Positions 22,469 to 64,000 of a stretch of 64,000 nt of DNA are shown piece by piece. The position numbers and the translations under genes are program-made. Under the pieces are notes generated by a model. It saw only the letters and a list, made by a program, of their open reading frames with translations, had not been told where the DNA came from and made no database searches. Numbering within the stretch: the first letter of the stretch is position 1; each line of letters opens with the position of its first letter. The stretch covers positions 1,183 through 65,182 of the IMG/VR virus record IMGVR_UViG_3300021256_000013. One strand, written 5' to 3'. The stretch comes from a virus (Duplodnaviria; Caudoviricetes).

Positions 22469-23340
22469 GCTCCACCACCTCCCATTTCTTCTTCCCGGAA
22501 TTGCTCCTTCATGATCATTTCGGACACAGCATCCCAGTCAGTATTACTCTGCGTGAAGTTTGAGAAACTGGTGGCCCTGGCTTTTGATTCCACCGGAGCG
22601 GGACGATAATTCTCGTCCAGATAATCGATATAACCGCTGTTGAAAAAAGTGCTCCCATTCTTCCAGTTAGGGGTAAATGCACCGCTGCGCTCCTTAGTAT
22701 TATGCTCATCGACATACCTCTGGATCGCACGAAGCATTTGTTCTTCCCCGATTTCAAGGAAGGCTCTTTTCTTTGCATCGCTGACATTACCCTTGCCCCT
22801 TTTGTTCGGGTATCTGTCCCATAGTCTTTCAAACAGTTCGTTTGCTTCGCGCTGTTTGTTCCTTGCAGGCTTCTTTTGGCTATCCTCCAGAACCTGCTCG
22901 GAGCCAACCGGCTCTGAGCATATATTTTGATTCTGATTCGGATTCTGATTCGGATTGGATTGGATTGGATTACGGGGACATTTGAAATCATCTGATATCA
23001 TTTGCATGCAAGTTGCATCAGGTGCAGGATACTTGCTTTTCTTTGCCCGGATCTGTTGGTGGCGCTCCCATGTTACCAGTTGCAGGACGGGTCTTCCCTG
23101 TACCACGTACCTTTGTACCAGTCCTGCCGCGGATAACTTATCGAGGGCCTTCTTTAGATCGGAGTCTCTGATATCTTTGAGAGGAAAACAAATGCTGTTT
23201 ATAATCTTCTCCCGTCCATCGAACCTTCCGTAATCGTCGCAATTGACGATCAGCCTATAAAACAGACACTCTTCAAACCAGGATAAGGAATCGATCTCAT
23301 CGCTTCGGCAGATGCTCTCTTTCAATATCCTGTTTGGCAC
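22465..23340 (-). CDS. Phage replication initiator (replisome organiser)
   Basis: MPNRILKESICRSDEIDSLSWFEE...FERLWDRYPNKRGK...KNGSTFFN. Confidence 0.82.
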   Translation of the reverse strand: MPNRILKESICRSDEIDSLSWFEECLFYRLIVNCDDYGRFDGREKIINSICFPLKDIRDSDLKKALDKLSAAGLVQRYVVQGRPVLQLVTWERHQQIRAKKSKYPAPDATCMQMISDDFKCPRNPIQSNPNQNPNQNQNICSEPVGSEQVLEDSQKKPARNKQREANELFERLWDRYPNKRGKGNVSDAKKRAFLEIGEEQMLRAIQRYVDEHNTKERSGAFTPNWKNGSTFFNSGYIDYLDENYRPAPVESKARATSFSNFTQSNTDWDAVSEMIMKEQFREEEMGGGGA

Positions 23341-62563: not shown

Positions 62564-63058
62564 TCATTCATCGGGATCCTCGGGGATATCGATCCTTTCG
62601 GCGGTTCCTTCTATGCTGAACATCGAGTAGGTGCCATCTTTTACCTTCTCCCAGACTTCCGGATCCAGAACCTGGAATCCGATCCACCACCCGATGGGGA
62701 GTGTTCCTTCCGGAACTCCCATAGCCTTCAGCTTTTCTTCTGTGAAGACCACGCTTTCGATCAGCGTTCCTGCTGTCTTTGGTTCGCCAGCATAGTGCAT
62801 CTCGCCGCTCTGTCGGTAGAACCTTACAAACTGGTATGCCGCCTGCTCAAGTTCTTCCGGATCGATCATATCGCCTTGCCAATCCTCAAGCTGATTGCCG
62901 GCCTCGTCTATGGACACATTCGCCCATCCAAAAGCCTGCATCTTTTCTTCGTTGGCCTTGGTTACCTTGAATCTGGATTTGACCACGGCTTCTTCCTGCG
63001 GTCGCTCCCTGGCCCTCCCTGTCAGTTCATCAAATGATTTCATCATATTTTCCTCCAC
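62564..63058 (-). CDS. XkdF-like putative prohead serine protease
   Basis: AFGWANV...DWQGDMI...GEMH...LIES...WWIGF...YSMFSIEG. Confidence 0.85.
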   Translation of the reverse strand: MEENMMKSFDELTGRARERPQEEAVVKSRFKVTKANEEKMQAFGWANVSIDEAGNQLEDWQGDMIDPEELEQAAYQFVRFYRQSGEMHYAGEPKTAGTLIESVVFTEEKLKAMGVPEGTLPIGWWIGFQVLDPEVWEKVKDGTYSMFSIEGTAERIDIPEDPDE

Positions 63059-63073
63059 TCAGGATTTTGATAT

Positions 63074-63172
63074 TTGACATCAATGCATTTCAATGTATAC
63101 TGTAGTTAAGTACTAATGTACTGAGGGAATTGAACGTGATCCACTGTTTGGTTGCGGCGCAATTCCCTTTTT
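63074..63172 (+). ncRNA. Putative convergent small RNA (promoter, two hairpins, U-tract)
   Basis: TTGACA(63074)-N16-TATACT(63096), AGTAC/GTACT hairpin, 9-bp AGGGAATTG/CAATTCCCT stem then TTTTT. Confidence 0.55.
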
Positions 63173-64000
63173 ATTTCCTTCGAAGCACTTTCAGTATTTC
63201 ATTTCCACGGATTATCATCAATTCTTTTACGAACCGAGTATTCCCAGCCCTGAACACTACATCGGACTGTCTATATACTTCAGATAGATCCAATGGGCTG
63301 TTAGTTACGTCAATAATAAAGTGGTCAGCTTGCTTATGCTTTTTATGAATAATGTTTCTTATAGCATCCTTGCTTGATCCACGAATCTCTTTTAAATCCC
63401 ATTTCTCGCGGTTTGGCCCGAGCAGGAAATCTGGCGTATGAACATTGCTATAAGGTCCTGCGATCTTTGGAGCCATAACTACCTGCTTCCCAGATCTTCT
63501 GGATAGCATCTCGCCAACCTCTTTCTCTCTGGGAGTATAATCAACTTTTATATCCTTGCCATCAACTTGATATTTAACTCCCTGATAGACAAAAGAGGTT
63601 GCATCAGTTACATCGCTGTCACTATCCTGTGTCCAATCCTCTGTAACATCTGCGTATTCAGCTTCTTCATTCCCGGATGTTGTATCTGCCGAAGGTGATA
63701 CTGCCGCATCCTCGCTGACCTCTTCTCTGTATTCAACAGCACACATACAACGCGGATGCATTGGTGGGAGTTCACATGTGTAATCCCTGTCATGCCATGT
63801 TGTAGAAAACTGCCCGGTTCCTTCGTCGATTGCCATTCCTTCCAGATCCTCGCAGACCGGACACACATTCCCGGAGTGTGCAGTTGACCAGTACGGAACC
63901 ATGTGGGGCATCAGGCCAGCTGCTTCGGCCTGTCGGATCGCTTCATCATTCCCGTAGTTGTATGCGTAGGCGTTCTCCGTCCGGGCTATGGTCACAGCCC
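63171..64000 (-). CDS. MuF head morphogenesis protein with C-terminal CdiA_C-like nuclease domain, 5' part outside the window
   Basis: IARTE...CPVC...PPMHPRCMC (MuF), then HTPDFLL...KWDLKEIRGSSKDAIRNIIHKKHKQADHFIID. Confidence 0.82.
   Translation of the reverse strand, partial: AVTIARTENAYAYNYGNDEAIRQAEAAGLMPHMVPYWSTAHSGNVCPVCEDLEGMAIDEGTGQFSTTWHDRDYTCELPPMHPRCMCAVEYREEVSEDAAVSPSADTTSGNEEAEYADVTEDWTQDSDSDVTDATSFVYQGVKYQVDGKDIKVDYTPREKEVGEMLSRRSGKQVVMAPKIAGPYSNVHTPDFLLGPNREKWDLKEIRGSSKDAIRNIIHKKHKQADHFIIDVTNSPLDLSEVYRQSDVVFRAGNTRFVKELMIIRGNEILKVLRRK

Follow-up and report, generated by a model that had tools for sequence, protein, structure and literature searches.

What holds a polymorphic toxin in check when no immunity gene follows it? 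Polymorphic toxins are thought to be held by cognate immunity proteins, and among phage MuF toxins a short open reading frame (ORF) follows 89% of the toxin genes and has been taken as the immunity gene, with no RNA partner mentioned (Jamet et al., 2017; PMC5576092). The locus that raises the question lies at the end of a 64,000-nucleotide (nt) stretch of virus DNA (Duplodnaviria; Caudoviricetes), hereafter “the window,” which comprises bases 1183–65182 of the 65,182-bp IMG/VR record IMGVR_UViG_3300021256_000013. There, a MuF head protein gene that ends in a nuclease domain of the CdiA_C type is separated from the next late gene by a 124-nt gap, and this gap holds the gene for a ~65-nt RNA that has its own promoter and is convergent with the toxin gene. 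Comparison with related phages supports the view that, in the CdiA_C MuF cassette, the RNA stands where a protein immunity gene would usually be. We infer that the RNA counteracts the toxin, and on balance consider that the element is probably a toxin-linked RNA antidote, acting by either an antisense or a protein-binding route.

The gap (63047–63170) lies between the MuF stop codon (63171–63173) and the prohead protease ATG (63046), and its plus strand carries, in this order, a promoter, two hairpins (a small one on the 5′ side, then one of 45 nt) and a U-tract, set among their neighbours as follows.

63074–63079, plus strand: −35 hexamer TTGACA, from the promoter scan; a promoter is kept at the equivalent place in relatives.
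63096–63101, plus strand: −10 hexamer TATACT, after a 16-nt spacer, with the predicted RNA start near 63108.
63109–63122, plus strand: P1, a small 5′ hairpin and palindrome (AGTAC-TAAT-GTACT) with a 5-bp stem and a 4-nt loop, from folding.
63124–63168, plus strand: P2, a long irregular hairpin and terminator stem, from folding and from covariation in relatives.
63124–63132 paired with 63160–63168, plus strand: outer 9-bp stem of P2, AGGGAATTG with CAATTCCCT, enclosing an inner G-U-containing helix.
63168–63176, plus strand: U-tract TTTTTATTT, covering the complement of the toxin stop codon (63171–63173) and of the last Lys/Arg codons.
~63174–63602, minus strand: CdiA-CT(Bp1026b)-like PD-(D/E)XK nuclease domain at the MuF C-terminus, from profile and structure matches.
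63171–64000, minus strand: 3′ part of the MuF gene, which in full encodes 497 amino acids (aa) and wraps round the record end.
62567–63046, minus strand: XkdF-type prohead protease, the next late gene, from profile matches.
63052–63056, minus strand: Shine-Dalgarno sequence of the protease gene, 18 nt from the −35 hexamer of the RNA gene.

The promoter (TTGACA-16-TATACT) is an 11/12 match and the top site in the 8 kb scanned. Four sites of at least 11/12, this one among them, occur on the two strands of the 64-kb window, where shuffles expect 0.8; the other three, all sigma-70-like, lie at 23177 (+), 34679 (+) and 30541 (−), and those near 30.5 and 34.7 kb flank the lysogeny/accessory region. 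The plus-strand RNA (63105–63176) folds at −25.1 kcal/mol (z = −4.9, with 0/200 shuffles as good), and the minus strand of the gap folds more weakly (z = −2.6) because the inner helix relies on G-U pairs. An earlier sequence-only reading of the window had placed the promoter, the small hairpin, the long stem and the U-tract exactly here, and its description of an independently promoted, structured and strand-specific RNA in the immunity slot is borne out by the promoter score, the fold and a strand test that came out the same way in 20/20 elements (see below). It had also stated that the RNA does not overlap the coding sequence, which proved wrong: the U-tract and 3′ end do overlap the toxin stop codon and last codons, and the RNA is complementary to the stop codon, the last toxin codons and ~60 nt of the toxin 3′ untranslated region (UTR).

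No ORF of at least 20 aa was found on the toxin strand of the gap, and the plus-strand ORFs there are unconserved antisense frames only. A hidden protein from antisense ORFs in or near the RNA (e.g., a 72-aa frame at 63130–63348, with similar frames in relatives) was rejected, as neither the position nor the presence of such frames is conserved. The element is single-copy in the phage genome and forms one hairpin unit without tandem repeats, and its P1 palindrome is likewise unique in that genome. Rfam gave no match to the element at E-values up to 10 in the window, nor at E-values up to 1 in 10 related loci; ARAGORN found 0 tRNA genes in the window; and the phage genome, when searched for sites that the RNA might target in trans, yielded 9–12-nt chance matches only. 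When IMG/VR was scanned for exact copies of a stem segment, a lone match came up, inside a coding region (L003), which we dismissed as chance.

The minus strand of the window carries the phage late operon, in which the MuF gene (497 aa) comes directly after the portal gene (a 496-aa ORF). PF04233 matches the partial MuF protein at 2.6e-5, under the gathering score on that fragment, and PHROG head-morphogenesis families match it as well; PF18451 (CdiA_C) matches the last ~140 residues at 5.1e-11, over its cut-off. To this family belongs a PD-(D/E)XK enzyme of B. pseudomallei 1026b, the CdiA-CT(II) tRNase (PMC9990079), which is the founding member and, as a tRNase, binds RNA. In 39 homologues of the toxin domain, a first alignment of which was too diverse for locus finding, the E, PD and DxK residues never vary. 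The AlphaFold (AF2) model of the domain has a mean confidence (pLDDT) of 96.3, and its top and single significant Foldseek match in the PDB is 4g6v_A (B. pseudomallei CdiA-CT; E-value 4.6e-5, TM score about 0.6); a phmmer search of PDB sequences gave no match, and neither did PADLOC or NCBIfam. An exhaustive profile-free search yielded 511 representatives, nearly all with the domain at the extreme C-terminus of 400–600-aa proteins, and the two closest homologues from Logan/ENA are P0002 (68% identity) and P0003 (55%). The protein thus has the C-terminal toxin domain common to other polymorphic toxin families, and the small downstream immunity ORF is absent.

A 127-bp terminal repeat in the record indicates that the genome is complete and circularly assembled. 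The phage encodes a CI-like helix-turn-helix protein and a tyrosine integrase and is temperate, in line with the lysogen premise of the sequence-only reading. A 99%-identical copy of the toxin region is present in a rumen “Candidatus Copromorpha” metagenome-assembled genome (MAG).

Does the arrangement recur beyond this phage? A pattern scan of IMG/VR gave 45 loci in which a MuF protein carries the toxin domain (30–44% identity), and at all 43 with a readable gene end (28 distinct gaps) a long hairpin starts at the toxin stop and 170–460 nt without a sizeable ORF follow it. On the opposite strand, the relatives share one order of parts: a sigma-70-type promoter, a ~7-nt spacer, usually a small palindromic hairpin, a 40–65-nt irregular hairpin and a U-rich tail. 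The convergent promoter scores 10–12/12 in every sequence class except that of L009/L017, and the tails hold 7–11 U in 12 nt in all relatives, the tail being complementary to the stop codon and to the conserved Lys/Arg codons with which the toxin ends. The end of P2 lies −3 to +4 nt from the toxin stop. In the deposited phage genomes, the toxin domain is carried by 42, of which 41 are Streptococcus prophages, and the promoter-hairpin unit was found in 6/6 named phages opened (S. pyogenes 315.6, S. pyogenes Javan513, S. pneumoniae IPP24, S. suis Javan573, S. iniae Javan273 and a rodent-gut virus whose MuF gene is annotated “CDI toxin, Bp1026b-like”).

Across these loci, the stem sequences are wholly different between classes, yet they always pair; P1 sits in the same place in most relatives with another sequence and is missing in some; and no primary-sequence or loop feature is common to the whole RNA family. 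The loops (3–9 nt) are free in size and sequence and the CTGTT loop of the window is not conserved, so that the earlier suggestion of a tRNA-Asn anticodon-loop likeness in the CUGUU cap is not supported, with ARAGORN and Rfam blank as well; tRNA finders detected no cloverleaf or anticodon arm, and there is no conserved anticodon-like loop. The RNA-sense strand is the more stable in 20/20 distinct elements tested (mean difference −4.85 kcal/mol), and across these 20 elements it holds 46 G-U pairs vs. 9 on the other strand. Within the AT-rich class, both partners have changed in 7/17 pairs, and pairing holds in 88.6% of cells, values reached by 0/500 shuffles and far above those of slid controls, while the three substitutions in the 99%-identical MAG copy all fall in unpaired positions. 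Streptococcal members keep the apical hairpin sequence, and their basal stem co-varies.

If the RNA belongs to the toxin rather than to the head module, it should come and go with the toxin domain. In the nearest relative by portal (97% identity), the MuF C-terminus is unrelated and is followed by a 53-aa ORF overlapping the stop and by a sense-strand terminator, and no convergent promoter was found there; in four relatives of the window lineage with a short, toxin-less MuF, the next head gene begins at −3 to +45 nt. A second lineage (MuF N-termini 57–100% identical) gives the same picture: both phages carrying the CdiA_C domain have the RNA unit, whereas four other toxin cassettes each have a 73–75-aa ORF overlapping or abutting the stop and a best convergent “promoter” of only 7–9/12, and toxin-less MuF genes have neither RNA unit nor small ORF. 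These controls (i.e., MuF genes with another toxin or none) comprise about ten distinct cassettes in two lineages and are not a global census. The sequence-only reading had expected a convergent promoter and hairpin to vary with toxin type, and this is what the survey found, with the element behind CdiA_C MuF genes and small protein ORFs behind other toxins; it had also named an element behind a toxin-less MuF as the finding that would count against it, and none was found in the two lineages compared. As the RNA tracks the CdiA_C domain and is replaced by protein ORFs elsewhere, the RNA gene behaves as the second component of the CdiA_C cassette. Between L013 and L103, identity is 92–93% in the flank and promoter but drops to 70% in the hairpin and to 53% (amino acids) in the toxin domain, a pattern that places a recombination boundary at the RNA, with P2 exchanged along with the toxin domain.

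Two long Clostridia toxins that are not MuF proteins and whose PF18451 domain is more distant (L055 and L057) have homologous ~80-aa Cys-rich (CxCG...CPxC) ORFs downstream with strong ribosome-binding sites (RBS), and these are presumably protein immunity genes.

Is such an RNA made? Primary 5′ ends of S. pyogenes M1 strain S119 have been mapped by differential RNA sequencing (dRNA-seq; Rosinski-Chupin et al., 2019; PMC6431027), and the 50 nt upstream of one transcription start site (TSS), pyotss0677, match prophage Javan513 letter for letter where its promoter is predicted, TTGATA-17-TATAAT (PMC6431027, supplementary tables). The mapped TSS lies 7 nt past the −10 hexamer and gives SP119_SR103, a 70-nt noncoding RNA with an intrinsic terminator, whose 3′ end (1445636) falls ~13 nt inside the MuF coding sequence at 1445623–1447068 (PMC6431027). 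In the same lysogen the late operon stays below 3 reads per kilobase per million (rpkm; PMC6431027). The Javan513 MuF toxin domain is 34% identical to that of the window. Since SP119_SR103 was mapped in S119, the RNA exists and is made in lysogens, at least for the homologue; a homologue of the transcript proposed for lysogens by the sequence-only reading is thus real in S. pyogenes, and the RNA of the window itself is known from sequence. SP119_SR103 was entered only as antisense to a 3′ UTR and a 5′ UTR, with no function and no link to a toxin or to immunity (PMC6431027), and our literature search found no paper linking such an RNA to the toxin. The transcript is already published; the toxin link, so far as this search shows, is not.

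How, then, might the RNA act? Our preferred mechanism, held tentatively, is that the RNA acts in cis as an antisense to the 3′ end of the toxin message. In a lysogen or early in infection, the constitutively promoted and abundant RNA would pair via its hairpin loops with leaky late transcripts, the RNA–mRNA duplex would be cut in an RNase III-like manner, and the upstream toxin-encoding part, shorn of its 3′ end, would be degraded; the burst of late transcription would later out-titrate the RNA. In favour of this mechanism, the RNA is always sited complementary to the end of the toxin message, yet no nucleotide is conserved family-wide. The sequence-only reading had called classic type I antisense unlikely, a judgement that is not supported: the whole RNA is the complement of the 3′ UTR and last codons, the same geometry as in Firmicutes type I systems and lambda OOP.

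Several points weigh against antisense action, or against an antidote altogether. The overlap spares the toxin RBS and nearly the whole coding sequence, and the target is a long polycistronic late mRNA, unlike the small-peptide toxin messages of classical type I systems. An antisense RNA is also unable to neutralise toxin protein brought in by the virion. The apical conservation in streptococci hints at sequence-specific recognition over mere complementarity, and in several lineages U-runs flank the hairpin on both strands, so that the hairpin could also terminate sense transcription. The promoter of the L009/L017 class is weak (7/12). Finally, that a MuF protein with a CdiA_C-type domain is toxic at all is something we infer.

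Standalone relatives of the nuclease offer a further comparison. Homologues of ~130 aa occur in 23/143 genomes of one Clostridia family, where no conserved protein neighbour was found for them, and ~40 nt downstream of these genes, on the same strand, lies a ~55-nt RNA gene that we call B1 (L052–L083, e.g., L065:1914–1980). The core of B1 (CGACCCACUGCUG ... AGCGGAGGGCC) is invariant and its outer stem co-varies, and the gene has a TTGAC(A/T) promoter of its own and ends in a U-tract; it is present in 26/143 genomes of the family, sometimes as two tandem copies, and is not in Rfam. Its covariance model gives a weak match to the L050 element only (19.8 bits, E-value 0.07) and none to the window, and RNAduplex found no consistent site between B1 and the neighbouring toxin mRNA. 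B1 also follows genes for DUF3800-like 224-aa, ParE/RelE-like 100-aa and 166-aa proteins, and sometimes no ORF (L120, L121, L125, L126, L116–L119, L122), and by its distribution is a general companion of small toxin- or defence-like cargo genes rather than of the nuclease alone. Because it follows these unrelated genes too, B1 fails as proof of a non-antisense mechanism and is a weak hint only.

Other small RNA motifs lie near the standalone nucleases. A second co-directional RNA (B2), with an outer stem GGAAC/GUUCC enclosing AGGACC...hairpin...ACACC, stands just after the stop of more divergent ones (L077, L078, L080, L081). Upstream of one standalone nuclease gene, at L052:2262–2309 (−), Rfam recognises a DUF3800-XI RNA with 51.8 bits, which exceeds the gathering score, and the neighbourhoods of these genes therefore hold several small RNA motifs.

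Set beside antisense pairing, a direct RNA antidote—type III-like or a substrate decoy, in which the folded RNA binds and blocks the nuclease domain—is the main alternative as an antidote, though rather unlikely. It would work even under blocked translation, and would protect producers, lysogens and freshly infected cells, where a tRNase would stop the synthesis of an immunity protein. The RNA sits in the immunity slot and swaps with the toxin domain, the founding enzyme of the domain family is a tRNase and so binds RNA (PMC9990079; 4g6v match), and the homologue is produced in a lysogen whose late operon is silent; the kept apical sequence and co-varying outer stem of the streptococcal RNAs would suit a protein partner, as would the Clostridia RNA genes, which are co-directional with the nucleases that they follow and cannot be antisense. 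Yet no sequence or loop feature is shared family-wide, the loops vary between 3 and 9 nt, and neither ARAGORN nor Rfam detects anything tRNA-like. The strict abutment of the RNA 3′ end on the stop codon is needless for a trans-acting binder, and repeats or processing sites of the ToxI kind are absent. Nor does B1 help here: as it also follows DUF3800-like and ParE/RelE-like genes it has no specific nuclease partner, and its model fails to match the window RNA.

Antisense control need not serve immunity, and the RNA and hairpin may instead adjust how the late transcript is processed, terminated or read through between muf and the head genes that follow or, in streptococci, might control small downstream ORFs. 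The RNA is indeed antisense to an intercistronic part of the late mRNA, U-runs lie on both sides of the hairpin in the AT-rich class, the streptococcal −35 hexamer overlaps the RBS region of a gene for a 37–40-aa hydrophobic peptide, and the published annotation is of an antisense to a 3′ UTR and a 5′ UTR (PMC6431027). However, sister phages with the same head module and no toxin or another toxin are without the element, so a generic need of the late operon does not explain it, and the peptide gene is absent from the window, the AT-rich class, S. suis and the rodent-gut virus; we regard such late-operon control as unlikely. That a promoter-like sequence stands by chance beside an ordinary hairpin, with no RNA gene at all, is barely conceivable. 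Although chance should supply about 0.8 sites of at least 11/12 per 64 kb, loci whose toxin domains are only 30–45% identical agree in position, strand and spacing, the G-U asymmetry favours the RNA-sense strand, covariation backs the stem, and a primary transcript is mapped in S. pyogenes, which refutes this reading for practical purposes. Cis-antisense action on the toxin message remains the reading we prefer, and the probability left beyond it, direct RNA–protein binding and late-operon control belongs to other or unknown mechanisms.

The nearest parallels in geometry are the type I systems of Firmicutes mobile elements, in which convergent antitoxin RNAs overlap the 3′ end of the toxin message (B. 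subtilis txpA/RatA and bsrG/SR4; E. faecalis par RNA I/RNA II). There, as here, a small constitutive RNA points towards the toxin gene and overlaps the mRNA 3′ end, the terminator hairpin is shared or abutting, and the element belongs to a prophage in Gram-positive hosts; by geometry the window RNA is complementary to its toxin mRNA too, and the mapped ends of the homologue confirm the overlap. The type I toxin, however, is small and usually a membrane peptide, whereas here it is a nuclease domain on a 497-aa head protein encoded in a polycistronic late operon. Lambda OOP, a 77-nt RNA antisense to the 3′ end of the cII mRNA, is likewise short, phage-borne, constitutively promoted and ended by a hairpin, and it too converges on a phage message to whose 3′ end it is complementary; its target gene and biology differ, and it overlaps ~50 nt of coding sequence where the window RNA overlaps the last few codons.

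Type III systems (ToxIN, CptIN, TenpIN) share the idea of a structured RNA that neutralises a nuclease toxin on mobile elements. Their toxins have the ToxN/AbiQ fold rather than PD-(D/E)XK, and their RNAs are tandem repeats, upstream of and co-transcribed with the toxin gene, whereas the window has a single hairpin, downstream and convergent, with no evident processing. The toxin domain itself finds its best structural match, from the same Pfam family (PF18451), in CdiA-CT(II)Bp1026b/CdiI (PDB 4G6V), where a protein, CdiI, is the antidote and a type V secretion system delivers the toxin. In other MuF cassettes, the MuF gene likewise follows the portal gene and carries a swappable C-terminal toxin, and the cd13442/Bp1026b-type nuclease is listed among the MuF toxin domains (Jamet et al., 2017; PMC5576092). 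Cassettes are exchanged between related phages, and the small ORF of the others is replaced here by a convergent RNA gene and no ORF. SP119_SR103 stands at a homologous locus and is a convergent primary transcript with a terminator ending inside the MuF coding sequence (PMC6431027), but it is without the small 5′ hairpin of the window RNA.

A branch of MuF nucleases that spans prophages of S. pyogenes, S. pneumoniae, S. suis and S. equi as well as many gut and rumen phages thus appears to use a dedicated small RNA. An RNA antidote for this toxin class, joining a polymorphic toxin cassette to an RNA antitoxin, has probably not been described before. If an antidote role is correct, RNA antitoxins extend to polymorphic toxin systems, the “missing” immunity ORFs of CdiA_C MuF cassettes are explained, and SP119_SR103, a streptococcal prophage small RNA already detected and unexplained, gains a function. 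Should the doubtful case hold that the RNA binds or decoys a packaged and injected tRNase-type toxin, shielding lysogens and newly infected cells without translation, no polymorphic toxin system before it would have had an immunity determinant made of RNA, and PD-(D/E)XK nucleases would gain a new class of RNA antitoxin.

At L006:3113–3184 (+), ahead of the scaffold gene, Rfam gives a sub-threshold match to the GP20-b motif (26 bits); the rest of the gap may be a 5′ leader of the next head gene, and at many loci this part contains a sense-strand terminator-like hairpin. In some lineages only (L012, L043, L044, L046), an ORF of ~53 aa (MLIAKI.../LKVRVIHDF...), conserved, hydrophilic and with a good RBS, lies between the RNA promoter and the next head gene. 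The gene for the strongly hydrophobic 37–40-aa peptide stands beside the RNA promoter in several streptococcal prophages (L127:2018–2133, L128:1317–1433, L132:1221–1334, L129:1469–1591), and also at L016; it is absent from the window and most other classes.

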